A stretch of DNA of 64,000 nucleotides from an uncultured Campylobacterales bacterium (GCA_964560425.1 CAZLLE010000083.1:51743-115742); one strand, 5' to 3'. Shown: positions 20,650 to 55,037, counted from the stretch's first letter. The notes: generated by a model from the sequence alone, not told the origin. A program made the numbers and translations.

Positions 20650-23289
20650 TTGATGCGATATTTAGTTTTACTACTACTTCTTTTTACTTTTTCTAATGCT
20701 TTAAAAGTTGATGTGGAATATTTAAAAAGAGAGATATCTAATAATCCTCAAGAGATTAAATATAGGCTAATTTTGGCTAAATATTTTATTTCGCATGGGA
20801 ACAGTGTTGAAGCTAAAAAATATCTTCAAGAAGCTTTAGATATTGATTCTTCTAATAGAGATGCTATTAGTTATAAGCGTAGGCTTAATGAAGTTATAAA
20901 TTTTGAAAATTATCTGTTAACTCATGGTATTAATAATTTAAACCAAAAGAGTAAAATTTTTATTTTGCTTAATACTCTTTTTGATAAAAAAAACTATCAA
21001 GAGTATATCTCTGTTTATGAAAATTTAAATAGTATAAATGTTTCACTTAATCAAAAAAGTCATCTGCAAGCCATAAAATCATATTTGTCTATTGGAGATA
21101 CTCTTCATGTTCGTGCTATTTTAGATAAAAATTTAATAAAAAACTATAGTGATACTCTTTGGGCGGAAGCTAGAATCTGTATATTAGAAGAAAAATATAG
21201 TTGTGCTAGGGAATATTATCACAAATTACTTTCTCAAAGTTTAGATGAGAAATATTTTATAGAGCTTTTTGATTTGGCTGAAAAGAGGGTAGATTCTAAA
21301 GAGTTAGAGCTTCTTTATAGAGAGGTAAAATTACTATTTCCTAATAGAATGGTATCCAAAAATATAGCTCAAAAGTTTGGTAAATATAGAGATAAGGTGT
21401 TGAACTCTCTTCAAAGCAGTTATTATAAAAATAGAACATTAAATTCATTGCGACCTTATGCTTATAAACTACATGAAGTGGGTAAAATTGATGAATCAAT
21501 AGATGAGATAAAGAAGTTTATAGTTACTAATCCTAACGATAATGGGGCAAAATATCTTTTGGCAAAGATATACTCTTGGAGTGGTTATCCTCAAAAATCT
21601 ATATCTACACTAACTCCAGTTATAGATGATAATGGTGATAATTATGAGCTATTATCCTTTTTTGTTGATAATCTATATCAGGTGGGGGATTATAAAAGAT
21701 CTATTTTTTATCTTAATAGAATGTCGAAGTTGACAACAGATAAAGATGAACTCTCTAAAATAGATAAAAAATTATCTTCGCTCTTAAAACTTCGTAAAGA
21801 AAAATCTACAATAGAAGCTCAAGATTTTCTCTCCAAAGCTATAAAATATCACGAAGAGAAATCTTATAAATTAGCAATTTCATATTATGAGAAATATTAT
21901 AATTTTACTAAAGATAAAAAAATAACTAAAGAGATTGCTGAATTATCATTTTTAGTAGGGGATTTAGTAAAAGCTGAAAAATTTTATAGAATCTATCTAT
22001 TTACTTATCCTGATGATTTTTTTATGAATTTTAGATATGCCACTCTATTAGAAAGTAAAAGAGAGTATCAAAAAACTATACCTCTACTCAAAAGAGTTGT
22101 TAGTGCTAGAGATGAAAATTATTATTTAGCTAAGTACCATTTAGCCTTTAATCTAATGCTTCTTGATAATGATAGAAGTTGGCTAGAGTCTAGAAAGATT
22201 TTTCATTCATTAAAAGATGAGCTTACTTCTGATGAGAGTTATAAAGGATCAAAAAGTATGCTTCCTTTGATTACTCAAGCTTTGAAAAAGGTTGATAAGG
22301 AGCGTCCAAAAGCCTCTTCTTATAAAGATATTATGCTTGGAGCTGGACAAAAGAAGGTGATTGATGATGATATTTTTTATCCTATAAGTATAAAAATGGT
22401 TGATTCACTCTCTACATCTTCGCTTCTTGGTGTAGCTGAGAAGTTAAAAAATGATAAGCCTAGAGAAAAAATCACTCTAGAGTATAGATCTATAAATGAT
22501 GATACTATTTTTAGTACTAATTATGGTATTAGAGGTCGTAATCTAATCACTGTAGCTGGAAGACAATTTGGTGCAAGTGTAAATAAATTTAAGATTCGTA
22601 CAGATGAAAAAGAGCATGAAGCTACAACTGTTGCTCTGAATATGAACACAAAAAATATTAATGTTTCTATAGGTTTTAATAAATTTGCCGATTTTACAGA
22701 AGTAGTACCCAAGATTGAATATTCACAAAAAGTGGCAAACCATAATATAAATGTTGGATTATCTTATCAAAATGGTCTGTTTTCAAATTATCGTCAACAG
22801 ATGGTTGAATCAAAAGTAAAAAATTTACAGCTTACTTTTTATGATGCGATATTGTTACATAATTTAGAACATTCAGAAGTTTGGGCTCAGGCTAGTATTT
22901 ATGATAATGATGCTCAAGGTTATAGTTTGGGTTTTAATTATCCTCTATGGAAAATAGCTACTGATAATGCTCAATTACCTTTTCTTGTAAATGGTAATTA
23001 TGAATACAACACAAATCCAGAGGCTTCTTATAGTCCTTCTGAATTTTATGATTCAAATTTTATTGATGTTCGCCCCAAATTATCTTTAGGTAGAGGTACT
23101 TATCTATCAGGTTTGGGTGGTATGGGATATTCACTAGAGAGTAAGGATATGTTATTTCATTATGGTCTTAGTTCTAGTATATTACTTTTTGATGTGGTTG
23201 AGTTTTTATTAAATTGTCAGCATATGCAGAGTCAGTATAGTAAGTATGGCTCTGATGAGTGTAGTGCAAATCTGGGATATGTATGGTAA
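20650..23289 (+). CDS. TPR-repeat plus C-terminal beta-barrel outer-membrane exopolysaccharide export protein (PgaA/BcsC-like)
   Basis: It has a signal peptide (LLLLLFTFSNA), about 550 aa of TPR-like helical repeats, and a last ~300 aa with an alternating-strand pattern ending ANLGYVW. The likely true start is ATG 20653, after AGGGA. Confidence 0.75.
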   Translation: MMRYLVLLLLLFTFSNALKVDVEYLKREISNNPQEIKYRLILAKYFISHGNSVEAKKYLQEALDIDSSNRDAISYKRRLNEVINFENYLLTHGINNLNQKSKIFILLNTLFDKKNYQEYISVYENLNSINVSLNQKSHLQAIKSYLSIGDTLHVRAILDKNLIKNYSDTLWAEARICILEEKYSCAREYYHKLLSQSLDEKYFIELFDLAEKRVDSKELELLYREVKLLFPNRMVSKNIAQKFGKYRDKVLNSLQSSYYKNRTLNSLRPYAYKLHEVGKIDESIDEIKKFIVTNPNDNGAKYLLAKIYSWSGYPQKSISTLTPVIDDNGDNYELLSFFVDNLYQVGDYKRSIFYLNRMSKLTTDKDELSKIDKKLSSLLKLRKEKSTIEAQDFLSKAIKYHEEKSYKLAISYYEKYYNFTKDKKITKEIAELSFLVGDLVKAEKFYRIYLFTYPDDFFMNFRYATLLESKREYQKTIPLLKRVVSARDENYYLAKYHLAFNLMLLDNDRSWLESRKIFHSLKDELTSDESYKGSKSMLPLITQALKKVDKERPKASSYKDIMLGAGQKKVIDDDIFYPISIKMVDSLSTSSLLGVAEKLKNDKPREKITLEYRSINDDTIFSTNYGIRGRNLITVAGRQFGASVNKFKIRTDEKEHEATTVALNMNTKNINVSIGFNKFADFTEVVPKIEYSQKVANHNINVGLSYQNGLFSNYRQQMVESKVKNLQLTFYDAILLHNLEHSEVWAQASIYDNDAQGYSLGFNYPLWKIATDNAQLPFLVNGNYEYNTNPEASYSPSEFYDSNFIDVRPKLSLGRGTYLSGLGGMGYSLESKDMLFHYGLSSSILLFDVVEFLLNCQHMQSQYSKYGSDECSANLGYVW

Positions 23290-24605
23290 AGGGGAGTGTA
23301 ATGAAGCAGGAACTCGATCAGGGTAATGTTTTTGTAATTGATGGTGATGAAAATGTTTGTATATTATCACATGTCTTACAACTGCAACATAGATATTTTG
23401 CAAATAAGATGTTATTTATATCATCAAAAGAGTCTTCATCTATAAAAGGTAATTTACAATATTTAAAAGATAAATTAGAGAAATTTGATGATATATATGC
23501 GAGGTTAAAATTTCTTTTTTTAAAAGAGTCTTGGCAAAATTTAAATGAAAAGTATGGAAACTCTTTTTTTAAAAATGAGTTAAATGATATTATTGGACAT
23601 GAGGGAGTAGGGACTATCTATTTTCATCATATTGATCTATTTTTTGATAATTTAGCTCCTCATGATATGCATGTTATTGTGAGTGATATTATTGGATTAG
23701 TTAAATATCATCATAAAAAAATTATTTTTTCATATAGTTCCAAACTTAGATTAGGATCAGTTTTAGATGATTTAATGCAAGAGTTTGTCGATATCACTTA
23801 TCATGTAACTAAAAATAGTGAACAAGTCTGTATGAATGAGGTTTTTTTTCATAAAAAGAGTGTTGTAAATCTTCTTCTTTTGACTCAAGATCCTCTTTTG
23901 GTAAAGTTTCATAGTTATATTTTTGATTGTCTAGGGCTTGTTAATTTTTTACATCTAGATGAGTTGACTAATGAGAATAAAGATAAATTATATAATGCAG
24001 ATATTATTGTATATCATTTGGCTGATGAAAAATTAAAAAATATGCTTTTAGAGTGGAATAATCAGAAAAAAGTCAAATCAAAACTTTTTCAACTTAGTTT
24101 TGAAAATTTGCATAGAAAACAAGATAAAATTATGGAGCTTCAAAGTGGATTTGACCATATTTTTGAACAAAATTTTGATCTACTAGATTATCTATTTCAT
24201 ATAGAAAATAGTGTCAAAGATAACTTTTATACTAAGAAGATGAAATATCTCCCTGTATTAAAAAATGCTGTTATTTTCGATGAAGGCATTTTTAAAAGGC
24301 AAATTGTTGACTTTATAGATAAAGAGATATTCTTCTCTATTGTAGTTATCTATTATGAATCAAGATATAAAATTGAGCTTCCACATTTAGAAGAGCTTAT
24401 TAGAGAAAATGATTATATCTATTTTGATGCAGGTGAGAGTAGAATAGTTTTTCTAATGTTGAATATGTTACCAACAACAGCGTATATGCTTTTAAAGTCT
24501 AGATTAGAAAAATCGCATATTTATATCAAAAAGCATCAGTTACATTGTGTAAATGATCTATATCCTACACTCTCTCATAAAAAAGAGACTGTATATGCTA
24601 CTTAG
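23283..24605 (+). CDS. cytoplasmic three-module protein with degenerate GGDEF (RxxD retained); candidate c-di-GMP receptor (BcsE/PelD-like)
   Basis: No TM segments. The C-terminal REND-YIYFD-AGESR-IVFLML aligns with RKSD-TFARW-GGEEF-VIILSQ of the cyclase at 59832-61139. The better start is ATG 23301, preceded by AAGGGGAG. Confidence 0.55.
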   Translation: MVKGSVMKQELDQGNVFVIDGDENVCILSHVLQLQHRYFANKMLFISSKESSSIKGNLQYLKDKLEKFDDIYARLKFLFLKESWQNLNEKYGNSFFKNELNDIIGHEGVGTIYFHHIDLFFDNLAPHDMHVIVSDIIGLVKYHHKKIIFSYSSKLRLGSVLDDLMQEFVDITYHVTKNSEQVCMNEVFFHKKSVVNLLLLTQDPLLVKFHSYIFDCLGLVNFLHLDELTNENKDKLYNADIIVYHLADEKLKNMLLEWNNQKKVKSKLFQLSFENLHRKQDKIMELQSGFDHIFEQNFDLLDYLFHIENSVKDNFYTKKMKYLPVLKNAVIFDEGIFKRQIVDFIDKEIFFSIVVIYYESRYKIELPHLEELIRENDYIYFDAGESRIVFLMLNMLPTTAYMLLKSRLEKSHIYIKKHQLHCVNDLYPTLSHKKETVYAT

Positions 24606-24619
24606 AGGAGGGTATAGAC

Positions 24620-25918
24620 ATGGTTAGAATATTGTTTCTATTTTTTATATTGCTATTTTTATCTTATACAAGTCTTACACAGCTGAATAATCTCTATCTG
24701 TATGGGGATACATTTGTTAAGTATGGAATTATTTTTATCTTAGTTTTCTCTTTGATTGTAATTGCTAGATATTTTATTCTGTTGCTTCTTTCGATGTTAA
24801 ATCTCTTTAGACATGTTAAATCTAAACAGAAGTATAACTATTATCATCAAAAAAAAGTTACTATTATTGTCCCTTGTTTTAATGAAGATAAGGTAATTAA
24901 AGCTTCATTAGAGTCTCTAAAAAAGCAGACATATCAAAATTATGAGATTATTGTTGTAGATGATGGTAGTAGTGATGATACTTTTAAAATTGCAAAACGG
25001 ATGGAATTTAATGATGGAAAGTGTAGGTTAATTGCTGTTACAAAAGAGAATGGTGGTAAAGCTAATGCTCTTAATCTTGGTATAGAGATGGCAAAGGGTG
25101 AGCTATTTTTGGCGGTTGATGCCGATTCTGTCCTCTCAAGAGATGCCTTGGAATTGATGGTTCCATATTTTGATGATCCTCGTGTGGGGGCTGTTGCTGG
25201 TTCTGTTTATGTTGTAAATCAAGATAATTTATGGACAAAACTTCAAGCTTTAGAGTATATTCAAGGATTAAATTTAGTAAGAAATGGTCAAGCGTATCTA
25301 AAACTTGTCAATATTATTCCCGGTCCCATTGGTATGTTTCGTCGTGATGCTGTATCCTCTTTGGGTGGTTATAGTGATGATACTTATGCAGAAGATTGTG
25401 ATTTGACTCTTAGATTAATCAATGAAAATTATAAAATTGATTATGAGATTGATGCTGTCTCATATACTGAAGCACCAGAGGAGCTTTTGGATCTACTAAA
25501 ACAGAGATATCGTTGGACAAGAGGTATTTTGCAATCTATTTTGAAGCATAAAATGAAGCTTGTCAATATCTTTTCAAATTTTTCGATGAGTATGGTTCTA
25601 TGGTATATGGTATTTGAGGCATTTTTATGGCCATTTGCCTCAATATTTGCAAATGTTTTTATTGTCTATCTAGGGGTTAGTTCTTCTCATAGTGAACTTC
25701 TTCTATATTGGTGGGTAATGTTTACAGTATTGGATGTTGTGGCTAGTATCTATTGTGTAAGTGTAACAAAAGAGCGTATGGGGCTTGTTTGGTACTCTCT
25801 CTATTATCGTATCTTTTTTATTAATGTGATTAATATAGCAAAGGTATTGGCAACTATTGAAGAGTTGTTTGGAATAGAGATGAGTTGGGGTAAATTAGAG
25901 AGAAAAGGAAAAATTTAA
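24620..25918 (+). CDS. processive family-2 glycosyltransferase (PgaC/IcaA/NodC-like polysaccharide synthase)
   Basis: It has 2 N-terminal and about 3 C-terminal TM helices. Motifs are VVDDGSSDD, AVDADS, AEDCDLT and QRYRWTRG. No PilZ domain is present. Confidence 0.88.
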   Translation: MVRILFLFFILLFLSYTSLTQLNNLYLYGDTFVKYGIIFILVFSLIVIARYFILLLLSMLNLFRHVKSKQKYNYYHQKKVTIIVPCFNEDKVIKASLESLKKQTYQNYEIIVVDDGSSDDTFKIAKRMEFNDGKCRLIAVTKENGGKANALNLGIEMAKGELFLAVDADSVLSRDALELMVPYFDDPRVGAVAGSVYVVNQDNLWTKLQALEYIQGLNLVRNGQAYLKLVNIIPGPIGMFRRDAVSSLGGYSDDTYAEDCDLTLRLINENYKIDYEIDAVSYTEAPEELLDLLKQRYRWTRGILQSILKHKMKLVNIFSNFSMSMVLWYMVFEAFLWPFASIFANVFIVYLGVSSSHSELLLYWWVMFTVLDVVASIYCVSVTKERMGLVWYSLYYRIFFINVINIAKVLATIEELFGIEMSWGKLERKGKI

Positions 25919-25920
25919 TC

Positions 25921-26121
25921 ATGGATATTAATATATTAGAAATTTTATCTTATACAGTTGTTACTATTACTGTATTGACAATGATATTTGGTGTTATTGC
26001 TTACTCTTTTTATAAAATTAGAGAGAGCAGGAGAAATGCTCAAAAAGATAATGCTCAAAATGAAGATAATGTATTGGAAAAAGATGAGTATCTATTTTTT
26101 GATGAGAAGGAGATTTTATGA
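25921..26121 (+). CDS. 66-aa single-pass membrane protein (possible synthase partner, PgaD/IcaD analogue)
   Basis: One TM segment (YTVVTITVLTMIFGVIAYSFY) is followed by a basic then acidic tail. It starts 2 nt after the GT2 stop and overlaps the next gene by 4 nt. Confidence 0.6.
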   Translation: MDINILEILSYTVVTITVLTMIFGVIAYSFYKIRESRRNAQKDNAQNEDNVLEKDEYLFFDEKEIL

Positions 26122-27986
26122 ATGTTGCAATAGATGAAAAAAAAGATTATTATGTTGCAAAATTGGGATTATCTCTAATTTTTTTGTTTGCCATTATGGC
26201 ATTTATGATGTACAAAATTCAACAAGGATCTGAAAATAGTGAAACTAAACCAAATTTTGCTGTACCAGTTCTTACTAATAACCCTATTTATATTGTAAAA
26301 TCATACTCCACTGCTTTAACATTTAGTAAAAATGGTTTAAGTAGTGATACTTATATTGAAAAATTGGACTCATTTAAAAAGTTTTTATCAGCAATGGGAT
26401 ATAAATCTTCCTATATTGATGAGGATAAAATTGGTTTATTAGATAAAAAAAGTATACTATTTTTACTTGATGCTGTATCTTTGAGTGATAGTGCTAAAGA
26501 TGGAATTAAGCTATTTACAAAAAATGGTGGATCACTATTTTTTAACTTTAATACAGGTTTTAGTGATGGTGATGGTAAATATATTGGAGATCAATTTGTA
26601 AATGATATTACCTCTTTGAAACTTAGTAAAAAGGGTTTTGTTAAATTTGAAGATGGTATTTTTATGACAAAAAAATTGCTTACCCCTATGTCCTCTTCTT
26701 ATCAAATGGGTGAACTACTATATCTTGTAATATATGATAATATTCCTATTTATGATAACCCAAATAGATTAAAACCAGATCTTATGGCATTGGCTTATAA
26801 TCAATCTTCTCCTCCTCGCGGTAAAGATAATATTGAAAAATTGACATTTTCTGAATCTGGAATAGGTTGGAGCGGTTATTATGGATATGGTAGATGGATT
26901 TATCTAAATTTCCCTAGTTACTCTTTTTATGAGACAGAAGGTAAAAGTAGTGAATTTGCAAAATTATTAAATGGCATGATCGATTATCTCTCTTCTGATA
27001 TCATTGTGGAAAAATTTCCTTATATTGATGAAGAGAGTGCTATATTCATATCAGAGGATACAGAGTATAGATTTGAAAATTTTGAAAAATTTTCTGATTT
27101 ATCTTTAAAGTATCAGATACCTGTAACAGCATTTATTGTAGCTAATTTAGCAGAAAATCCTCAGTATAAAGATTTAATGGCGAAAGTAGCAAAAAATCCA
27201 TATTTAGAGTTTGCTTCACATAGTACCTCACACAAAAAAATTGTTGGTGAATCAGAGGAATTTATCAAAAATGAGACAGTTGGTTCAAAAAACATAATTG
27301 ATAGATATGCACCAACTCCTATTGTTGGATTTAGACCTCCTAGAGAAGAGCTAAATGATATGATGAAAAAGTATCTACAAGAGGGTGGTTATAAATTTAT
27401 TTTACCAAAAACACAACAATATCTTTATCCTAAATTTGATGAAAAGTATAGAAATATCATGATGATTCCTCGCCATGGGACAGATGATTATGGTTATTTG
27501 GTAAATTTAGATTGGGATCAAAAGACAATTATAGATCAGATGAAAGAGGAGGCTAACTTTATTACTTATTTGAATGGTATATATACTTTGAGTATGCATA
27601 CACACCTCTTTGCTTATGATACAAATATCAATATTGTAGATAGGTTTTTTCAATATATCAAAAAAAACCCACAGCTTAAACCTCTTTCTGGGGCTCAAAT
27701 TTATAATAAAGTTACAGAAGCGATGGGGATAGATATCTCTTCTACTGTTCAATCAAATAGATTAGTTATTAGTGTAAAAAATAGTAATAGTAAAATTGTT
27801 AAAAATTTAAGTTTGAGGATTTTCAAAAATCCTTTGGATAAAATAGAAAAATTAGAATCAAATATGGAAAATATTACTCTTAAAATAAATAAACAAAGCG
27901 ATCAAGAGGTAGATATAAATATCAAAACTTTACAGCCAAATTCAGAGGTTCTACTTTTTGTAAACTATAAAAGAGAGAAAAGATGA
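26118..27986 (+). CDS. membrane-anchored polysaccharide deacetylase (CE4/NodB) with N-terminal domain of unknown function
   Basis: It has an N-terminal TM anchor. CE4 motifs are SEDTE, ASHSTSHKK, GFRPPREE and LSMHTHLF. The ~300 aa before and ~110 aa after the CE4 core are unassigned. Confidence 0.8.
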   Translation: MNVAIDEKKDYYVAKLGLSLIFLFAIMAFMMYKIQQGSENSETKPNFAVPVLTNNPIYIVKSYSTALTFSKNGLSSDTYIEKLDSFKKFLSAMGYKSSYIDEDKIGLLDKKSILFLLDAVSLSDSAKDGIKLFTKNGGSLFFNFNTGFSDGDGKYIGDQFVNDITSLKLSKKGFVKFEDGIFMTKKLLTPMSSSYQMGELLYLVIYDNIPIYDNPNRLKPDLMALAYNQSSPPRGKDNIEKLTFSESGIGWSGYYGYGRWIYLNFPSYSFYETEGKSSEFAKLLNGMIDYLSSDIIVEKFPYIDEESAIFISEDTEYRFENFEKFSDLSLKYQIPVTAFIVANLAENPQYKDLMAKVAKNPYLEFASHSTSHKKIVGESEEFIKNETVGSKNIIDRYAPTPIVGFRPPREELNDMMKKYLQEGGYKFILPKTQQYLYPKFDEKYRNIMMIPRHGTDDYGYLVNLDWDQKTIIDQMKEEANFITYLNGIYTLSMHTHLFAYDTNINIVDRFFQYIKKNPQLKPLSGAQIYNKVTEAMGIDISSTVQSNRLVISVKNSNSKIVKNLSLRIFKNPLDKIEKLESNMENITLKINKQSDQEVDINIKTLQPNSEVLLFVNYKREKR

Positions 27987-29224
27987 AACCTTTAGCCACT
28001 GCGGTACTATTAGTTATCGGAGTATTGGGTTCAATTATTTATGATGTGGAGAGGGGAGATATAAATTTCCCCTATCCTTCTCATATTGCTTATACTTATG
28101 GTTCTATTTCTCCCACTAGTAATACACAAGAAGAGAAAGATAAGATAGTAAGTGACTATTATGATATATGGAAAAAAAATTATCTTATAAAAGAGACAAA
28201 TAGTACATTACCCCTCTATAGAATTGCTACAGATATTAATAATATAACAAGAACCGTCTCTGAAGCACAAGGTTACGGCATGATTATTACTGCTATTATG
28301 GCAGGATATGATAAAGATGCCAAAGAGATTTTTGATGGTCTGTGGAGATTCTCTCGTCTCTATCCTAGCTCAATATCTTCTGATCTGATGGCATGGGAGA
28401 TTCCCAAAAAAGTAAAAAACTCAAATAGTGCTTTTGATGGTGATACTGATATGGCTTATGCACTATTAATAGCAGATAAACAATGGGGTTCTTCTGGAGA
28501 TATTCACTATACAAATGAGGCAAAAAAATTAATAGAAGCAATCTACAAATATACTATAGGAAAAGATAGTAAACTTCCTCTTCTTGGGGATTGGGAAGAC
28601 CCTTATGGTGAAAAATTTAACCAATTTACCCCTCGAACCTCTGATTTTATGTTGAGAAATTTTAGATCTTTTTATGCTTTTACTAAAGATAACAGGTGGT
28701 TAGAAGTTTTGGAAGCTTCACAATTAGCACTTATGAGTTTTCAAAAATATAGTGCACCATATACTGGATTGGTATCTGATTTTATTAAATTTGATTATGA
28801 AAAAAATTATTTTGTACCAACTCAACAACATTTTTTGGAGACTCATGATAATGCTTTTTATTATAATGCGTGTAGAGTACCACTTCGTATAGGAATGGAT
28901 GCTCTTTTGAGTGGAGATGATAGATCAATAGATATTACACAAAATATATCCTCATGGATTATTAATAGTACAAATGGAGATCCTACACTTATAAAAGGTG
29001 GATACATGATGGATGGTAAAGTGATTGGCAATTTTTTTACTACAGCTTTTGCCTCTCCTCTAGCCGTAGCTAGCATGCTCTCGCCAAAAGATCAAATATG
29101 GCTAAATAAAAATTATGATTTTATAAAAGATAGAGTAGAAAATTATTATGAAGATAGTTTAAATCTACTCTCTCTTTTAGTTTTGAGTGGTAATTTTTGG
29201 GACTCTGCTAAAACCCCAAAATAG
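27983..29224 (+). CDS. glycoside hydrolase family 8 (BcsZ/chitosanase-like)
   Basis: It has an N-terminal signal/anchor. GH8 signatures are TVSEAQGYGMII and SAFDGDTDMAYALLIADKQWG. Confidence 0.85.
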   Translation: MKPLATAVLLVIGVLGSIIYDVERGDINFPYPSHIAYTYGSISPTSNTQEEKDKIVSDYYDIWKKNYLIKETNSTLPLYRIATDINNITRTVSEAQGYGMIITAIMAGYDKDAKEIFDGLWRFSRLYPSSISSDLMAWEIPKKVKNSNSAFDGDTDMAYALLIADKQWGSSGDIHYTNEAKKLIEAIYKYTIGKDSKLPLLGDWEDPYGEKFNQFTPRTSDFMLRNFRSFYAFTKDNRWLEVLEASQLALMSFQKYSAPYTGLVSDFIKFDYEKNYFVPTQQHFLETHDNAFYYNACRVPLRIGMDALLSGDDRSIDITQNISSWIINSTNGDPTLIKGGYMMDGKVIGNFFTTAFASPLAVASMLSPKDQIWLNKNYDFIKDRVENYYEDSLNLLSLLVLSGNFWDSAKTPK

Positions 29225-30329
29225 ATATATTTGCATATCTCTCATATGCCCATATCGCAGCAATTATTGCTGTGATAAATGATCCTCCATAAACTACGAT
29301 ATTTCGATAATAGATACTCTCTCTTGCCAAAAATATATATGGTAATATTACTAGAACAATGATTAGTTGACCTATCTCTACGCCTACATTAAATCCAAAA
29401 AGCATACCTACTAAAGTTATATCTTCTAATAGTAGCTCTTTTAATACATTGGCAAATCCAAAGCCATGAATTAATCCAAATCCAAATGCTAAAAACCATA
29501 TTTTTGATTTTATAAAACCAAATAGATTATTTATAGCAGTAAATAAAACTGATAGAGCTATGGCAATCTCTATATATCTTGAATCGATATCAACTATATC
29601 AATTACACTTAGTACTAAGGTAATGGAGTGAGCAACACTAAAGGCTGTTACTATCTTTGCTACTTCTATAAAAACTTTTTTGAATGAATTATATGTTTTT
29701 AACTCTTTGTTCTCATAATAGTAGATAGCAGGAAGAAGTAGCATGAGTAAGAATAGAATATGATCAAAACCTATCCATATATGCCAAATACCTTCTATTA
29801 GAAAGTTTTTAAATGCTCCCAATGTACTTCTTGCTTCCATATCTATTTCATAACTAGTGGATCTTTGGCTTAAAATTATGGGTTTAGTTTGATTGCTCTC
29901 ATTTACTCTTACAAATGCTTTTTGATTTTTGTCTATAGTGAAAAATAGATCATAATTTATTTTAAGAACTTTTTCTGGTTTAGGACAGAGGAGATGCATA
30001 TCAAGTTTAATATATGATTGATGGGAACCTCTTTGATGTGCTGTATATTTTTTTATTTTAAATCTACATTGTTGTCCATCAGAATATACTTGAAAGTGTC
30101 TAAACACATAAGGTAGTATCTCTTTTTTGTGTGCTTTTAGTTCATTCCATGAGACAACTTTATTTTGATTGTCATCAAGAGAAAACATCTCTTCTAATAT
30201 AACACTCCCAAAATCTAAACTAATTTTAATTGGATCTGAGTTTAGATTAATATCTATAAAATTCTCTTTTAATACATCTGCATAAGAGATTTGTAACATG
30301 ACTAAAATAGCAACTATTATCTTTTTCAT
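29208..30329 (-). CDS. HupE/UreJ-family membrane protein with N-terminal periplasmic domain
   Basis: It has a signal peptide, a soluble region of about 170 aa, then 6 TM helices with WIGFDHILFLLMLLL and HGFGFA motifs. Its 3' end overlaps the GH8 gene by 17 nt. Confidence 0.7.
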   Translation of the reverse strand: MKKIIVAILVMLQISYADVLKENFIDINLNSDPIKISLDFGSVILEEMFSLDDNQNKVVSWNELKAHKKEILPYVFRHFQVYSDGQQCRFKIKKYTAHQRGSHQSYIKLDMHLLCPKPEKVLKINYDLFFTIDKNQKAFVRVNESNQTKPIILSQRSTSYEIDMEARSTLGAFKNFLIEGIWHIWIGFDHILFLLMLLLPAIYYYENKELKTYNSFKKVFIEVAKIVTAFSVAHSITLVLSVIDIVDIDSRYIEIAIALSVLFTAINNLFGFIKSKIWFLAFGFGLIHGFGFANVLKELLLEDITLVGMLFGFNVGVEIGQLIIVLVILPYIFLARESIYYRNIVVYGGSFITAIIAAIWAYERYANISILGF

Positions 30330-41432: not shown

Positions 41433-42998
41433 TTATGGAAGAATATTCTTCAAAATAAAATCCGCTACCACTCTTTGCCCCTCTCTTGAGAGATGTACAT
41501 TATACCCATCTTTTTTATACCAGTCATATGATGTCTTCTCTTGAGTTGGCATTAGAGAGTCTATTACATTAATAAGTGGTATATTTAACTCTATGGAAGT
41601 TTGGATATAGGCACTTCTTATTATTTGTGTAAAGTCATCATCGTCATATTGTCTATTTGGCATAGTTAGTACAAATATAGTCATTGGTTTATAACTTCTA
41701 ATTTTATTAATAGCAATTTCTAAATTCATTCCAATTTTATTTTGAGTGTTTGGATTCCATACATCATTAATTCCAAGAGATATATCGACAATGGTATGTT
41801 CACCATTATTAGGTATTAGATTTACTGCATCTTTCCAGTTTGGTGTAAAAATATTTCCCGCAAAATCTCTTATTGTATGTCCTGATTTTGCCACAAGGTG
41901 AGAAGAAACATTATATTTTTTTAGAGTATCTCTTAGTTGATAATATAAATATTGTCCACCATGTTGTCCATCATCTGCTCTTGTACTATCACCTACACAA
42001 ATATATGTTACATCTGTAATAATGCCATTTTTTGAATCGTTTATAAGTTCTTTAATATCTTGAAATTCACCCGTAAAAATAGGTCTTTCAATAGTTTCAA
42101 TATTGCACTCAATAGGTAATCTATCTGTTGAATCATAATTTTTCCCATTTAACTCATTTTGATATATTGTTTCTATCTCTTGTGGAGTTAGAGGACGATC
42201 AAATAGTTTTGTTTCATCTAGTATCCCAGAAAAGCCATTATCAAACTCATTCCAAATAGTACCACCTAAAATATTTGTATCCCTAGTTAGAATAGATGTG
42301 TCTATACAGCTTTGATCGAGGTGATCTGATGGATTTCCGTTGGTATCATAGGTAGGTTGTTCTATTCCATCTAAATATATTTTTGCCTCTCCACTTTTAT
42401 GATCATAAGTTGCACTATAATGGTGTAGTCCATCTTGTATAGCATCTGTCCATATTTGTGTATTACAGTTACCATTTAGAAGTTGAAAGCGTATACGATT
42501 TTTATCCCCACCTTGCCAAAATGATATAAAATCTCTAGCTTTTCCCTCTTTATCTCTTCCATTTGAAATTTCAATAAAATGTCTATCTTGATAATCTAAC
42601 TCTCCAAAATCAACCCATGAGGATAGAGTTAATCCGTTTTCAAAACTATTTTTGATTGTAGGTAATTGAATATATCCATCTTCACTAAATTGATTGGCTC
42701 TATTTAATATTGAAGTTGTAGAAAATTTTCTATTATGAGGAGTGCCATGAAGTCCATTTTGACTGCTATCTTTTATTTTGCTATTTATAGAACATTCATC
42801 AAAACGGTACTCAAATATTAAATCTGGATTAATTTTGTTTGCATATTTTGAGAAACTATTTTCTGAGTGATAAACTTTGGTATTACTATTTTGAGCTGTA
42901 GTTGTAGTTATATCTGTAGTTCCTCCACAACCACTAAATATAATAGTAGTAAATAGTATGGATAGATAGGAATTTATAGATAATAGTATTTTATTCAT
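41433..42998 (-). CDS. lipoprotein with LamG/concanavalin-like N-terminal domain and SGNH/GDSL hydrolase C-terminal domain
   Basis: The lipobox is IIFSGC. A LamG-like pattern is present (GLHGTP...GYIQLP...LTLSSWV...LDETKLFDRPLTPQEI). SGNH blocks are CVGDSTRADDG, SLGINDVW and DGYNVHLSREG. Confidence 0.7.
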   Translation of the reverse strand: MNKILLSINSYLSILFTTIIFSGCGGTTDITTTTAQNSNTKVYHSENSFSKYANKINPDLIFEYRFDECSINSKIKDSSQNGLHGTPHNRKFSTTSILNRANQFSEDGYIQLPTIKNSFENGLTLSSWVDFGELDYQDRHFIEISNGRDKEGKARDFISFWQGGDKNRIRFQLLNGNCNTQIWTDAIQDGLHHYSATYDHKSGEAKIYLDGIEQPTYDTNGNPSDHLDQSCIDTSILTRDTNILGGTIWNEFDNGFSGILDETKLFDRPLTPQEIETIYQNELNGKNYDSTDRLPIECNIETIERPIFTGEFQDIKELINDSKNGIITDVTYICVGDSTRADDGQHGGQYLYYQLRDTLKKYNVSSHLVAKSGHTIRDFAGNIFTPNWKDAVNLIPNNGEHTIVDISLGINDVWNPNTQNKIGMNLEIAINKIRSYKPMTIFVLTMPNRQYDDDDFTQIIRSAYIQTSIELNIPLINVIDSLMPTQEKTSYDWYKKDGYNVHLSREGQRVVADFILKNILP

Positions 42999-43202: not shown

Positions 43203-43826
43203 ATGTCTTTTTCAAAAACTATTAATTGTCCACAATGTGGTGTTTCTTTAAATAATGTTATAAAATATACAGCTTTGATGAAATGTCCTCAATGTGGTAG
43301 TGTATTAGTTTATGAAAATGAATCTTTTCGTTCGATGGGTAAAATTGCAACACTTGCAGATGAGCCATCTTTACTTTGTTTAAATCAATCTTTTTCATAA
43401 CAAGATGTAAAATTTACTCCTATTGGAAAAGTTCGTTATAGATATGATATAGGTTTTTGGGAAGAGTGGTTTGTGATTGACTCAAAAGGAAAAGAGTTTT
43501 GGGTGAGTGTTGATGAGGGTGATTTTGCTTTTGAAGTACCTTTTGATATCAAAAAAAAATTTCCAAAAAAGAGTGAACTTAAAGTCTCTGCAACTATATT
43601 TTTTGAGGGAATTAGCTGGGTTGTATCAGAGCTTGGCGAGGGTAGTTGTGAAGGATTTGAAGGACAATTGCCAGAGATGATTAGGATTGGTGAGAAGTTT
43701 GATTATATTCACTTTACAAGCTTAAAGGGCGAAGATTTTTTGAGTGTTGAGTGTTATAAAGATGGAACGCAAAAAGCATATCGAGGATATTGGGTAGATG
43801 CATATGAGATCAAGAGGGTTTCATGA
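43203..43826 (+). pseudogene. Zn-ribbon plus DUF4178-like protein interrupted by an in-frame TAA (43398-43400)
   Basis: Track ORFs 43203-43400 and 43473-43826 share one frame. The 72 nt between them translate without further stops into QDVKFTPIGKVRYRYDIGFWEEWFV, which continues the same domain. Only a GTG start without a clear RBS is available for the second piece. Confidence 0.5.
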
Positions 43827-45043
43827 GTAATAATAAAATTAGAGTCATTAACTGTAAAAATTGTGGTGGTTCTATGGAGATGTTTATAGAGAGTAGAAAA
43901 CTACAAACTTTAACTTGCTCATATTGTGGGAGTGTTCATGATGTGCAACATGAATTTAACATACTCTATAAATATTCAAATAATCTCAAATCAAATAGCC
44001 CTATTAAACTTGGAATGAAGGGTAAAATCAAAGATGTAGAGTTTATTGTAATTGGGGAGATTTTTTATAGTGATAAACTATATCCTGAGTCAAAATTAGT
44101 AATGAGTGATTATTTGGTTGATTATCAGCTCTACTCACCCACTCATGGTTATGCTACTCTCTCTTATGAAAATGGACACTATATTTTTTCAAGAAGAGTA
44201 AGAGATATTGCTCCAAATCTACTTAATGGTATTTTTGTGGGAAATGTAGTTGTATATAGGAATATAGCTTTTAAAGTAGTAGAAATTTATCAAACTTATC
44301 TATATCAGGTAAAAGGAGCTTTGAGCTGGAGGGCAAAAAAGGGTGATAAAACAGCCGTAGTTATGGCTAGTTCACCACCATATATGATATCTTATGAGAA
44401 GAGTAGAAATGAGATAGAGTACTATTTTGAGGAGTATATTAAACCTGAGATTATTTTTGAAGGGTTTAATATCAAAAATGATCAAGAGGATCATCGTCTT
44501 GGAGTTCATAGTGCTCAACTTTTTGATTCACCTATTTTACAAGCACTCTCAAAAGTGAGTTTTATAAGCATGATTTTCTCTATATTTGTGCTTCTATTTC
44601 TATTTATATTTGGAAGTGGAAAAGAGATTTTTTTGGATAATTGGAGTGGAACCAATTTGCAAAATGCTATCTCAAAAGAGGTTAATGTGAGTAATGTTTC
44701 GCATCTATTAAATCTCCAATTAAAAAGTTCATTTAGTGGAAATAGGTGGAGTGATTATGATATTTCACTTTTACAAAATCAAAAAGTGATCAAAAATTTC
44801 TCCAATGAACTAAATATGGCTAGAAAAAAGAGTCCAAAGATAAATATATATTTTAAGCTCCCTTCAATGGGTAAATATAATCTCAAAATTGCTTCAAAAA
44901 TAACTAAGACTCCATATATTAAAGTCTCTTTGAAGCAGAATGTTTGGACTTTGAAATATTTTTTTATGCTTTTTTTGATTAGCTTTCTCTCTTATATTTT
45001 CTATCTTTTCAAAAGATATAGTTTTGAACTAAAGAGAGATTAA
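43823..45043 (+). CDS. Zn-ribbon plus DUF4178-like domain membrane protein
   Basis: The zinc ribbon is CKNCGG...CSYCGS. A DUF4178-like beta-rich core is present (LGMKGKIKDVEFIVIGEIFY...). TM segments lie near residues 240-265 and at the C-terminus. It overlaps the upstream gene by 4 nt. Confidence 0.7.
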   Translation: MSNNKIRVINCKNCGGSMEMFIESRKLQTLTCSYCGSVHDVQHEFNILYKYSNNLKSNSPIKLGMKGKIKDVEFIVIGEIFYSDKLYPESKLVMSDYLVDYQLYSPTHGYATLSYENGHYIFSRRVRDIAPNLLNGIFVGNVVVYRNIAFKVVEIYQTYLYQVKGALSWRAKKGDKTAVVMASSPPYMISYEKSRNEIEYYFEEYIKPEIIFEGFNIKNDQEDHRLGVHSAQLFDSPILQALSKVSFISMIFSIFVLLFLFIFGSGKEIFLDNWSGTNLQNAISKEVNVSNVSHLLNLQLKSSFSGNRWSDYDISLLQNQKVIKNFSNELNMARKKSPKINIYFKLPSMGKYNLKIASKITKTPYIKVSLKQNVWTLKYFFMLFLISFLSYIFYLFKRYSFELKRD

Positions 45044-53345: not shown

Positions 53346-55037
53346 TTAATAATCTATGCTAAGTTCACTCATGTGAACTGCTTTATTCATCTCTTTTAAG
53401 AGGATAGGGTTTAGTTTTATTATATTCGCTAAATCACTACTATTTGGACTCTTTTTTATATATAGTGGTTTGAGCTTTTTCCATAGGGTTTGAACCTTTA
53501 TAAGCTGTTGTTTAATTGATTTATTACTTACAGGTATAACTTTTATATTTTCATCACCTTTTAAGAGTGCCAAAAGTGAATTTTCAAATAGAGCAATAGT
53601 CTCATCTAACTTTTTTTGGTTACTGTTTTGGTTTAAATTTGCTACTGTTAGTAGTTTCTCTTTTGCCATCTTTTGTGTTAACATTCTTTGTCTTCCTGCA
53701 ACATCAATAACTTGTGTTCGTACGACATCCATGTATCCATCAAAATTCTTATTTTTCTTATATAGTTGCACAAGGGTATTTGAAATTTTTAGTAGATTCT
53801 CATTGTGTGAAGCAATAAATATAATATCTTTCGGATCTGTTTTTTGAGTATTACTAATATTTTGAATATGTTTATAAAAAGGTTGCCACTCCTCTTGAAT
53901 AGTTTTTAGTTGTGTAAGAATATTTTTATCTGTTGTTGGTATTAATTGTAGATCTTTATCGCCATTTATAAAGCCATTTAGTGTTTTGTTGTATAAATTA
54001 GAGGCTTTTTTTAGCTCTTTTTTACTATTTTTTACCCCAATGTTTGATGCAATTAGCAGTGAAAGTTTTGACATTTTTTGTGTCAACATTCTCTGCTTTC
54101 CTGCTAGATTAATAACATGATTTTTTTCACTTTTTAACTCCATAAAATTACCAACAATAGCTGATAAGTTTTTCATGAGTTTCTCTTTTCTTATTGAGTT
54201 TTCATATAGTGAAACAATTTGATTCATCTGTGTACGAAGTGAGTCTAGTTTAATAATACTCTCTTTTAATTTTCCTCTATTTTTTTGAAGTTTCTTATAA
54301 TCAAGAGATGGTTTAATATCTTCCCAATCTTTTTGAGCAATTTTTAACTCTTTTTTAATTTTGGTTAGTTTAGTTCCCTTTAAATTTAGTGAACTATCTC
54401 CATTTTGTAACCCTTTTAATATTTTGTCAAATAGAGATATAGTTGTTTGTAACTCTTTTTTATTCTCTTTTGTATTGATATTATTAGTGATTAGGAGAAT
54501 CTCTTTTGCTATTTTCTGTGTAAGCATTCTCTGTTTTCCAGCAAGGTTGATATCATTTGTCAAACTTGATTTTAAGTTAGAACTATCTCCCCTTTTGATA
54601 TACATCTCTACAACTTTATTTATCTCTTTTAAGAGTTGTAAATTTATTTCTGCTATAGAGTGATAACTTTTTTTAGATGATCTGTTATGTAAAATATTTT
54701 CAATATCTTTATGAAATTTTTTCCAAATTTTTTCTACGATTTTTAGTCGTTTTTGAATTTTTGAATTTTTAATAGCTACAAGATTTAACTCTTTATCTCC
54801 ATTGATTAGACCATTAAGTGTCTGCTCAAAAAGTTTAATACTATGATTTAGGTTTTTTATATTTTTCTTTTTATCAATACTAGATTTAATTAAAAATATC
54901 TCTTTTGTTATTTTTTGTGATAACATCCTCTGTTTACCTGCCAAATTTATAGTTGTGGCTAACTCTTTATTTGATAAGGCAAATGATAGAGATGGTAGTA
55001 GTAGTAATAAAATAAAAATTTTCTTTATATATATCAA
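53346..55037 (-). CDS. secreted protein made of four tandem PilJ/NarX-type (NIT-like) sensor modules, no output domain
   Basis: TTG start and a signal peptide ending LSFALS. The motif AG(K/R)QRML(S/T)QK occurs at residues 33, 166, 312 and 447. I see no TM segment or catalytic/HAMP/MCP domain after the signal peptide. Confidence 0.7.
   Translation of the reverse strand: MIYIKKIFILLLLLPSLSFALSNKELATTINLAGKQRMLSQKITKEIFLIKSSIDKKKNIKNLNHSIKLFEQTLNGLINGDKELNLVAIKNSKIQKRLKIVEKIWKKFHKDIENILHNRSSKKSYHSIAEINLQLLKEINKVVEMYIKRGDSSNLKSSLTNDINLAGKQRMLTQKIAKEILLITNNINTKENKKELQTTISLFDKILKGLQNGDSSLNLKGTKLTKIKKELKIAQKDWEDIKPSLDYKKLQKNRGKLKESIIKLDSLRTQMNQIVSLYENSIRKEKLMKNLSAIVGNFMELKSEKNHVINLAGKQRMLTQKMSKLSLLIASNIGVKNSKKELKKASNLYNKTLNGFINGDKDLQLIPTTDKNILTQLKTIQEEWQPFYKHIQNISNTQKTDPKDIIFIASHNENLLKISNTLVQLYKKNKNFDGYMDVVRTQVIDVAGRQRMLTQKMAKEKLLTVANLNQNSNQKKLDETIALFENSLLALLKGDENIKVIPVSNKSIKQQLIKVQTLWKKLKPLYIKKSPNSSDLANIIKLNPILLKEMNKAVHMSELSIDY
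53346..55037 (-). repeat. four tandem intragenic repeats of about 400-440 nt
   Basis: The conserved core codons for AGKQRML sit at 54921-54941, 54522-54542, 54084-54104 and 53679-53699 (computed from the ORF frame). The flanking LFE/LFD...LNGL(I/Q)NGD...W pattern recurs in each unit. Confidence 0.75.

Follow-up and report, generated by a model that had tools for sequence, protein, structure and literature searches.

A conserved Campylobacterota gene module encoding a putative cyclic di-GMP-controlled, synthase-dependent exopolysaccharide secretion system

Gene content of the locus

The window analysed here is a stretch of 64,000 nucleotides (nt) from an uncultured Campylobacterales bacterium (GCA_964560425.1 CAZLLE010000083.1:51743-115742), and our subject is a gene module whose parts list is that of a synthase-dependent exopolysaccharide system. 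An initial annotation, made from the sequence alone, had described six genes, O1 to O6, and read them as one operon. Mechanical listing of the open reading frames (ORFs) in the window reproduced the coordinates of all six exactly and placed them all on the + strand, with overlaps of 7 nt between O1 and O2 and of 4 nt both between O4 and O5 and between O5 and O6, and with gaps of 14 nt between O2 and O3 and of 2 nt between O3 and O4. The layout that had been described therefore stands, as does its reading as a single co-oriented, translationally coupled cluster holding the parts of a synthase-dependent exopolysaccharide system. What had been overlooked is a seventh conserved gene, O7, and the existence of a widespread family with two architectures. 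Since the HupE-type O7 is conserved with the other genes, the boundary of the module should reach 30329. The features are as follows.

O1, 20650 to 23289, + strand: secreted TPR protein of 879 residues (TPRs from Pfam), with a putative C-terminal outer-membrane beta-barrel export channel
O2, 23283 to 24605, + strand: cytoplasmic BcsE-like protein of 440 residues, a putative receptor for cyclic di-GMP (c-di-GMP), from AlphaFold2 (AF2) and Foldseek
O3, 24620 to 25918, + strand: membrane-embedded GT2 synthase of 432 residues (Pfam, NCBIfam)
O4, 25921 to 26121, + strand: single-pass membrane peptide of 66 residues, a putative synthase partner and/or BcsF-like anchor for O2
O5, 26118 to 27986, + strand: membrane-anchored periplasmic CE4 deacetylase of 622 residues (Pfam, AF2, Foldseek)
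O6, 27983 to 29224, + strand: membrane-anchored or secreted GH8 hydrolase of the ChoK/CSN-MN chitosanase subfamily, 413 residues (PDB sequence matches)
O7, 29208 to 30329, - strand: convergent membrane protein of the HupE/UreJ_2 family, 373 residues (Pfam)

The sequence motifs on which the six genes had originally been named were all found in the translations: ANLGYVW in O1; VDDGSSDD, DADS, EDCD and QRYRW in O3; HSTSH, RPPRE and MHTH in O5; and SEAQGYGM and AFDGDTDMAYALL in O6. The true start of O1 is probably the ATG at 20653, which lies behind an AGGGA ribosome-binding site. Promoter and terminator scans were uninformative in the AT-rich DNA of the window, with 87 promoter-like sites found and 69 expected.

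Our analyses indicate that the module is a real, widely conserved and uncharacterised cluster with the genes to synthesise, partly deacetylate and export a sugar polymer. We consider it probable that it belongs to a family without a name as yet and secretes an exopolysaccharide by a synthase-dependent route gated by c-di-GMP. Literature searches directed at this gene set turned up no description, and a systematic survey of synthase-dependent operons leaves the Epsilonproteobacteria, Campylobacter, Sulfurimonas and Arcobacter all unmentioned. The original observation that the gene combination fits no characterised system was upheld, as the module corresponds neither to Pga, Bcs, Pel nor Nfr (see below) and no paper describing it was found.

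Conservation and two architectures

Related loci were collected by a one-genome-per-species scan using an alignment of the CE4 protein O5, of which full-length homologues are numerous. The scan gave 49 loci; ORFs were called in all of them and searched with the window proteins and with family hidden Markov models (HMMs). The loci belong to Campylobacterales, Sulfurospirillum, Sulfuricurvum, Sulfurimonadaceae, Nitratifractor, Nautiliaceae and a few Gammaproteobacteria (Marinobacterium jannaschii DSM 6295, Pontibacterium sinense and Methylococcales), and most come from metagenome-assembled genomes (MAGs) of Campylobacterota.

A five-gene core of O1, O2, O3, O4 and O5 is essentially universal across these roughly 50 loci, in one of two arrangements. 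Type A, to which the window belongs, has the order O1-O2-O3-O4-O5-GH8 followed by the convergent HupE/UreJ_2 gene. Type B has the order O2-O1-O3-O4-O5 followed by a secreted protein of about 330 residues instead of the GH8, and its O1 is longer, at about 1040 to 1170 residues. The synthase O3 is the best-conserved gene of the module (median identity 72% in type A and 54% in type B), and O1 and O2 diverge fast (22 to 29% identity). The closest relatives of the window locus, with O2 identities of 82 to 96%, share the same seven-gene order and the same clpS-clpA-aat and lnt-yajC-secDF surroundings. The same operon lies in quite different surroundings in Sulfurimonas sp. SWIR-19 and in a MAG in which the cluster adjoins glmS. 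Because about 50 loci in differing genomic contexts share this gene set, its arrangement is not due to chance, and the conserved core, the two layouts and the unrelated contexts mark the cluster as a real, selected unit.

In genomes of the Sulfuricurvum/Sulfurimonadaceae type, a complete canonical bcs cluster (bcsA with PilZ, bcsB, bcsZ, bcsC with BCSC_C, and bcsQ) directly adjoins a type B module. Such clusters were located beside the module at the following positions.

L061-L063:1-9280: bcs cluster beside the module
L033:20-3900: bcs cluster beside the module
L030:13525-21806: bcs cluster beside the module

A reverse check that started from divergent O2 members found O2 at the head of type B modules adjoining bcs clusters. 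In L030, from Sulfuricurvum, the bcs cluster is on the opposite side and strand, and O2 is still with the module; in some bcs-adjacent loci one short divergent gene alone separates bcsQ from the BcsE-like gene. No BcsB ORF is present in the module, and a BcsB query matched the separate bcs cluster of L030 only. Neither BcsQ nor BcsR was found in the window cluster, and bcsQ is adjacent only in Sulfuricurvum-like loci that have a full bcs cluster. The presence of a complete bcs cluster alongside the module in some genomes means that the module is separate from the cellulose system and coexists with it, and a decayed Bcs system was rejected as an explanation for the same reason. The adjacency of the two gives a hint of the setting in which a BcsE-type protein may have passed between them.

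Genes for GGDEF-EAL proteins flank the module in 10 loci, for example a PAS-GGDEF-EAL gene at L009:2630-4420 on the - strand. Precursor-supply genes were also looked for, and none is conserved with the module across loci. As a separate observation, the Nautiliaceae loci have a gene for a histidine kinase-FecR-TPR protein just upstream of the module (L035:1785-3680).

The synthase and its small membrane partner

Pfam assigns O3 to the GT2 enzymes (Glycos_transf_2, 6.6e-38; Chitin_synth_2, 1.9e-13), and the protein carries the processive D, DxD, ED and QRxRW motifs. No PilZ or other recognised sensor domain was found in it by Pfam, and the earlier description of a GT2 without PilZ in a locus without BcsB agrees with the domain searches. 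The best NCBIfam model was TIGR03937 PgaC_IcaA, whose cut-off of 422.3 bits lies far above the 204.9 bits obtained; NodC followed at 120 bits, and the CelA/BcsA models gave 52 to 66 bits against cut-offs of 699 to 992. With E. coli PgaC the identity is 36% over 277 residues, with all motifs aligned, and the nearest solved structures are those of hyaluronan synthase (1e-18) and BcsA (2e-14). By these comparisons O3 is best classed as a homologue in the PgaC family and not as an equivalog.

In the 66-residue O4 an N-terminal transmembrane helix is followed by a basic YKxRE stretch, a linker that varies and, at the C-terminus, a conserved Y(L/I)FFE motif. The peptide is recognisable by its sequence in every locus that has that stretch on its contig, always in the order GT2-O4-CE4, with a length of about 57 to 70 residues (from called genes or ATG starts). 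No Pfam match was obtained, and BLAST detected no sequence similarity to PgaD (137 residues, two transmembrane helices) or to BcsF (63 residues, one transmembrane helix). By size and topology, O4 appears to resemble BcsF more than PgaD. The C-terminal tail of BcsF adds a beta-strand to the sheet of the BcsE NTPase* domain in the Bcs macrocomplex (PMC11470070), and by analogy the hydrophobic C-terminal motif of O4 could add a strand to O2. O4 probably also acts on the synthase itself, since three loci keep it without a detectable O2.

A BcsE-like protein without sequence similarity to BcsE

Searches of O2 against Pfam, NCBIfam and PDB sequences gave no match. Its AF2 model (pLDDT 87.2, pTM 0.70) has a degenerate P-loop NTPase domain (about residues 1 to 190), a degenerate receiver domain (about 195 to 320, with R278KQD) and a degenerate GGDEF domain (about 330 to 430, with R374END), the GGDEF signature being replaced by AGESR after R374END. 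When the model was compared with the PDB using Foldseek, chains of E. coli BcsE took all of the top five places, with alignments of about 490 columns at 3.8e-13 to 2.3e-11. The next-best matches were KaiC for the N-terminal domain (7.5e-8) and DgcR/PleD for the receiver-GGDEF part (1.5e-7), so that BcsE matches over the full length and about five orders of magnitude ahead of any other protein. The initial annotation had proposed a degenerate GGDEF module and a BcsE-style protein; the former was borne out by the model and Foldseek, though it is invisible to sequence searches, and the latter by the match of the tripartite NTPase*-REC*-GGDEF* fold.

A word-indexed search for the O2 family found four close relatives, and repeating it with the family alignment added almost nothing. 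An exhaustive HMMER search gave 64 cluster representatives of 410 to 486 residues. In the family alignment R278, Y316 and R374 are invariant, D281 is present in 37 of 40 members and D377 in 39 of 40, which defines two RxxD motifs. The family profile matches PDB receiver domains in the middle of the protein at 1e-5; by our reading of the alignment, a different residue stands where the phospho-acceptor usually is. A canonical Walker A occurs in only one of 40 members, and type B members retain a P-loop remnant containing GK.

BcsE consists of a catalytically dead NTPase domain and a degenerate REC-GGDEF tandem, and it binds intercalated c-di-GMP through validated I-sites at R306ATD in REC* and R415TGD in GGDEF* (PMC8892547). 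A non-significant hhalign alignment, used for motif register only, places R278KQD of O2 on R306ATD and R374END on R415TGD. The model and the key motifs indicate that O2 is BcsE-like, undetectably so in sequence, and by analogy with BcsE it is a putative c-di-GMP receptor through its two RxxD sites. At 59832 to 61139 (+ strand) the window also encodes a 435-residue putative GGDEF cyclase with an intact-looking GGDEF domain (1e-45), so c-di-GMP signalling is present in this organism. No Rfam family matched anywhere in the window, which argues that it holds no c-di-GMP riboswitch.

The deacetylase

O5 matches Polysacc_deac_1 in Pfam (1.2e-12) and has no sequence match in the PDB. The AF2 model, built with 66 homologues (pLDDT 88.6, pTM 0.85), shows a transmembrane helix at residues 12 to 36, an N-terminal domain resembling GATase1 and GH42 domain B (about 55 to 300), a NodB/CE4 domain (about 305 to 535) and a C-terminal beta-sandwich (538 to 619). 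Foldseek matched it to CE4 deacetylases (3rxz at 5.6e-11, and also 3qbu, 6h8l and 3cl6) and matched the N-terminal domain to GH42 chains.

The catalytic motifs of the CE4 family are conserved among the 66 homologues. In motif 1, which reads ED rather than DD, D314 and E316 are conserved and E313 and T315 are present in at least 90%. The motifs H368-S-x-x-H372, R406-P-P-R-E410 (with P407 in at least 90%) and H494-x-H496 are conserved. In the fifth motif, NLDW at 463 to 466, L464 and W466 never vary, and N463 and D465 are each found in at least 90%. The modelled fold and these motifs place O5 among NodB-type CE4 enzymes and predict de-N-acetylase activity. Neither BLAST nor the family HMM detected any similarity to PgaB, and the model contains no (beta/alpha)8 domain of the GH153 kind.

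An architectural parallel that we had not expected between bacterial and animal proteins was also seen: the N-terminal and CE4 domains of O5 align over 569 columns with the human heparan sulfate N-deacetylase/N-sulfotransferase NDST1 (9f6z).

The hydrolase slot and the HupE-type gene

O6 belongs to GH8 by Pfam (3.1e-25). In the PDB it matches the chitosanase ChoK over its full length (1v5c/7cju, 2.2e-82), then 5xd0 at 8e-78, and the BcsZ-type 3qxf only at about 1e-4. Against the NCBIfam BcsZ model it scores 53.2 bits with a cut-off of 299, and its identity is 27% to E. coli BcsZ and 41.6% to ChoK from Bacillus sp. K17. The proposal that the GH8 is a Bcs-type accessory therefore has to be given up. 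Of the 91 positions conserved among the operon GH8s, 63 are identical in ChoK. With the residue roles taken from ChoK (PMC6362164), E94 of O6 corresponds to the catalytic acid E74, and D152 and N295 correspond to the -1/+1 subsite residues D135 and N271. By our reading of the alignment, some distal acidic subsite residues of ChoK are unconserved, D131 being replaced by N148 and D315 by G339. On this evidence O6 is assigned to the ChoK-type chitosanase subfamily of GH8, and the corresponding activity is predicted.

In type B the slot after the CE4 gene is filled, in at least 16 loci, by the secreted protein mentioned above, one example of which serves as reference.

L003:11838-12824, + strand: type B secreted protein of about 320 to 350 residues in the post-CE4 slot; also in L030, L032-L039, L043, L044, L046-L048, L050, L056 and L061

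The protein has invariant NPE(Y/F)N (NPEYNE) and FQEMR motifs and gave no match in Pfam, NCBIfam or PDB sequences. It may be an unclassified glycoside hydrolase that stands in for the GH8, and from its two motifs our guess is a hydrolase of the TIM-barrel kind.

O7 (Pfam HupE_UreJ_2, 1.5e-45) has a signal peptide, a periplasmic domain of about 150 residues and a HupE transporter domain. It converges on the GH8 gene and overlaps its stop by 17 nt. Among the roughly 20 type A loci long enough to show it, 19 have the gene no more than about 1.5 kb downstream of the GH8, in at least three genomic contexts. A HupE-type gene is also found near seven type B loci, either upstream or downstream; in Pontibacterium it is upstream and on the same strand. 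That O7 supplies metal for the CE4 enzyme is a guess.

The putative exporter

O1 has a signal peptide and TPR repeats over about residues 20 to 500, TPRs being all that Pfam recognises in it, followed by a C-terminal domain of about 310 residues (about 570 to 879, nt about 22357 to 23286). Among 33 homologues the TPR part ranges from 414 to 851 residues, and the C-terminal domain measures 304 to 336 residues in 31 of them. The terminal residue is Trp in 29 of the 33, and C856 and C871 are invariant in all of them (nt 23215 to 23286 encode residues 856 to 879), which suggests a conserved disulfide near a terminal strand resembling a beta-signal. Period-2 amphipathic segments cover 68% of the C-terminal domain, compared with 31±8% in column shuffles, and suffice for about 16 to 18 strands; no transmembrane helix is present. 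From these sequence properties the domain is likely an outer-membrane beta-barrel. Similarity of O1 to BcsC and to NfrA is limited to the TPRs.

Comparison with known systems

The module had originally been described as a Pga-type core with Bcs-type accessories, and this description holds in part. The GT2 is indeed PgaC-related, at 36% identity, and O2 is BcsE-style; the CE4 and the 66-residue peptide are unlike PgaB and PgaD, and the GH8 is not of the Bcs type. In general plan the module resembles Pga in having a short GT2 without PilZ together with a small membrane partner, predicted periplasmic de-N-acetylation by a CE4 enzyme and a TPR protein as putative exporter, the GT2 being a true homologue. 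It differs in that the GT2 falls below the PgaC_IcaA equivalog cut-off, and in that the CE4 protein is anchored by a transmembrane helix and has a GATase1-like N-terminal domain, whereas PgaB is a CE4 plus GH153 lipoprotein unrelated in sequence. O4 has 66 residues and one transmembrane helix and PgaD 137 residues and two, the C-terminal domain of the O1 exporter is not similar to PgaA, and the module adds a BcsE-like protein, a GH8 and a HupE gene.

On the cytoplasmic side the likeness is to the BcsE-BcsF pair of type II Bcs systems (PDB 9fo7, 9fp0, 9fnn and 9fp2). O2 shares the three-domain fold with RxxD motifs on REC* and GGDEF*, and O4, like BcsF, is a single-pass protein of about 60 residues with a cytoplasmic tail. 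O2 nevertheless has no detectable sequence similarity to BcsE and is shorter, at 440 against 523 residues. The module also lacks BcsR, BcsQ, a PilZ-bearing BcsA, BcsB and BcsG, and its synthase is PgaC-like. Its hosts are mainly Campylobacterota, whereas BcsE has been described as typical of Beta- and Gammaproteobacteria (PMC8892547).

The Pel system likewise combines a cytoplasmic degenerate-GGDEF I-site receptor, a partly deacetylated N-acetylhexosamine (HexNAc) polymer, a deacetylase with a hydrolase, and a TPR exporter (PMC8892547). Its GT4 enzyme PelF, PelG, PelE, the TM-GAF-GGDEF protein PelD (TM, transmembrane), the multidomain PelA and the PelC ring all have no counterpart in the module, whose synthase is a GT2 and whose O2 has neither a transmembrane nor a GAF domain. 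The Listeria Pss system, by its description, has an IcaA/PgaC-like GT2, a separate degenerate-GGDEF receptor (PssE) and a membrane-bound hydrolase (PssZ) (PMC4125290, PMC13492145), the last assigned to GH126 by its authors (PMC13492145). It differs in being Gram-positive with no outer-membrane exporter, in having the BcsB-like PssD and in the architecture of its receptor. E. coli Nfr pairs the TPR outer-membrane protein NfrA with the c-di-GMP-controlled GT2 NfrB; the sensor of NfrB is fused, there is no CE4 or GH8, and O3 is only 24% identical to NfrB (E=0.002), in the GT domain only. YbcH had no BLAST or HMM match among the module proteins. For the hydrolase, the ChoK/CSN-MN enzymes match O6 at 41.6% identity over the full length with catalytic acid and -1/+1 subsite residues conserved, but ChoK is secreted and nutritional, whereas O6 is operon-embedded, membrane-anchored or periplasmic, and from a Gram-negative bacterium. 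Overall, the module would operate in the manner of Pga and Pel in the periplasm, and its cytoplasmic sensor in that of type II Bcs.

Proposed mechanism and polymer identity

In the mechanism that we propose, O3 would polymerise a UDP-HexNAc and thread the chain across the inner membrane. The likeliest donor would be UDP-N-acetylglucosamine (UDP-GlcNAc), a housekeeping donor of this kind being favoured because no precursor-supply gene is conserved with the module. O4 would sit beside the synthase and, by analogy with BcsF, tether O2 to the membrane through a strand formed by its Y(L/I)FFE motif. O2 would bind c-di-GMP at the RxxD sites of its receiver and GGDEF domains and license synthesis, a role taken elsewhere by PilZ, PelD or PgaCD, so that O4 and O2 together would form a membrane-tethered c-di-GMP sensor for a synthase with no sensor of its own. 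In the periplasm O5 would remove part of the N-acetyl groups, and O6 in type A, or the protein of about 330 residues in type B, would trim or release the partly deacetylated chain. O1 would scaffold these steps and, with its C-terminal domain as the passage across the outer membrane, export the polymer, and O7 possibly provides metal to the CE4 enzyme.

A partly de-N-acetylated HexNAc polymer is our best reading of the product. A beta-1,4-linked polymer of glucosamine and GlcNAc, that is, a chitosan-like one, is favoured over beta-1,6-linked poly-N-acetylglucosamine (PNAG) because the GH8 is of the chitosanase type. We put forward the chitosan-like polymer as a tentative identification that falls somewhat short of even odds, and regard a product like de-N-acetylated PNAG (dPNAG) as rather doubtful, with the remaining weight on other products. 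More specifically, the module could be the first bacterial synthase-dependent secretion system for a chitosan-like (beta-1,4 GlcNAc) polymer, built from a PgaC-related GT2, a dedicated CE4 and a chitosanase-type GH8, with a BcsE/BcsF-type pair of c-di-GMP sensor and anchor recruited, or ancestrally shared, outside cellulose, and widespread in Campylobacterota; in this full form we hold the idea to be speculative and on the unlikely side. The analysis establishes the gene content and its conservation, the folds of O2 and O5, the catalytic motifs and the subfamily of the GH8; c-di-GMP binding, the contact between O4 and O2, the barrel, the substrate and the linkage are inferred, as are the most striking claims, a chitosan-like product and BcsE/F-type control.

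Several of our observations weigh against this interpretation. On linkage, O3 is nearer to the beta-1,6 PNAG synthases than to NodC and the chitin synthases, which argues against a beta-1,4 product. Listeria PssC, about 30% identical to IcaA, makes a beta-1,4 N-acetylmannosamine (ManNAc) polymer (PMC4125290, PMC13492145), so that GT2 similarity is a poor guide to linkage either way, and Pss is a precedent for an IcaA/PgaC-like GT2 making a beta-1,4 HexNAc polymer. Regarding the hydrolase, the GH8 occurs in type A loci only and is thus missing from half of the family (type B), certain ChoK relatives in the PDB were deposited as glucanases (for example 5xd0), and the catalytic base of O6 is ambiguous between E286 and D289, both conserved, because the loop holds a two-residue indel. 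For the exporter, the C-terminal domain of O1 gave no Pfam family in any of 31 members (BCSC_C included), no PDB sequence match with the family profile and no homology to the barrels of E. coli PgaA, BcsC and NfrA. For the sensor, the O2 family and E. coli BcsE gave an hhalign probability of 1.8% and no BLAST or HMM match. Finally, L024-L026, and probably L022 too, have O1-O3-O4-O5 with no detectable O2 on the contig and with the C-terminal motif of O4 kept; since O4 is retained in L024-L026 without a detectable O2 nearby, it has a role independent of an adjacent O2.

The module might instead be a divergent Pga system that makes beta-1,6 PNAG, with the CE4 acting as PgaB, the TPR protein as PgaA, and the GH8 or the type B protein of about 330 residues replacing GH153. 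PgaC_IcaA is the top curated model for the GT2, ahead of NodC, the identity to PgaC is 36% with all motifs aligned, and the parts list of TPR exporter, CE4, short GT2 without PilZ and small transmembrane partner parallels pgaABCD. The GT2 and CE4 are, moreover, common to types A and B, so the hydrolase would be interchangeable. The GT2 score is, on the other hand, under half of the equivalog cut-off, there is no GH153, and the CE4, the small peptide and the C-terminal domain of the exporter are unlike PgaB, PgaD and PgaA. To our knowledge, all characterised GH8 enzymes act on beta-1,4 bonds, and the nearest relatives of O6, at 42% identity, are chitosanases. PNAG systems also sense c-di-GMP by PgaCD itself and not by a BcsE-like protein (PMC7112194). 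We consider a divergent Pga system unlikely, at roughly one chance in a handful or slightly better. A polymer that is not based on GlcNAc at all, either of the beta-1,4 ManNAc type (as in Listeria Pss and E. coli Nfr) or some different HexNAc polymer, mixed or otherwise, with the GH8 diverged to that substrate, is less plausible still and has only a small chance of being correct. It can draw on the IcaA-like PssC, which makes a ManNAc-Gal polymer under a degenerate-GGDEF c-di-GMP receptor (PMC4125290, PMC13492145), on NfrA/NfrB as a TPR outer-membrane protein with a c-di-GMP-activated GT2 (by record annotation), and on a UDP-sugar dehydrogenase gene just upstream of the module in L003. Across loci, though, no epimerase or dehydrogenase is conserved with the module, O3 resembles NfrB only at the low level given above and has no MshEN domain, the module holds no equivalent of the BcsB-like PssD, and the family-conserved residues of the GH8 are identical in the chitosanase at 63 of 91 positions.

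The partly deacetylated, possibly chitosan-like polymer under BcsE/BcsF-type control also has to be set against readings that detach single genes from the system. O2 might serve in structure or assembly, or as a scaffold that binds nucleotides, rather than as a receptor for c-di-GMP, with control exerted for instance at the GT2-O4 interface, in the manner of PgaCD, or transcriptionally. This would suit the fast evolution of O2, its undetectability in three loci that keep O4, the GK-containing P-loop remnant of type B members, and the finding that BcsE of E. coli acts as an enhancer and is not the primary sensor (PMC8892547). We judge it improbable, as the few invariant or near-invariant residues of this fast-evolving protein include both Arg and both Asp of the RxxD motifs, these motifs map to the validated I-sites of BcsE, and the GT2 lacks PilZ and every other recognised sensor domain. 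It is very unlikely, in turn, that the GH8 and HupE genes are neighbours with jobs of their own outside the secretion system, such as environmental chitosan scavenging and metal uptake. Both are absent from, or non-adjacent in, type B loci, and ChoK-type enzymes of Bacillus are secreted nutritional chitosanases (PMC6362164). Against this, the GH8 gene begins within the last 4 nt of the CE4 gene, and, regardless of the genomic surroundings, the GH8 follows the CE4 in all type A loci of sufficient length apart from L012 and L020. Another secreted protein occupies the same slot in type B, mirroring the position given to a hydrolase in Bcs, Pel, Pga and alginate systems, and the HupE linkage survives changes of context and orientation.

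Significance

Four synthase-dependent exopolysaccharide systems are well understood, those for cellulose, PNAG, Pel and alginate. A fifth conserved family would widen this picture with an exporter domain and a deacetylase architecture of its own and with two alternative hydrolases, one of them without known relatives. BcsE has been taken as a hallmark of E. coli-type Bcs systems, and with the module the BcsE/BcsF regulatory unit would no longer be confined to cellulose. Campylobacterota dominate deep-sea vent biofilms, and the module is a concrete candidate for the source of a Campylobacterota matrix polymer. If the product is chitosan-like, it would also represent a new natural bacterial source of chitosan. 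Cultured carriers that allow testing are Sulfurimonas sp. SWIR-19, Marinobacterium jannaschii DSM 6295 and Pontibacterium sinense.

Other features of the window

Three further unusual ORFs were noted in passing.

43823 to 45043, + strand: ORF of 406 residues with no Pfam match
41433 to 42998, - strand: protein with Laminin_G_3 and GDSL-lipase domains
53346 to 55037, - strand: protein of 562 residues with four PilJ-type sensor domains

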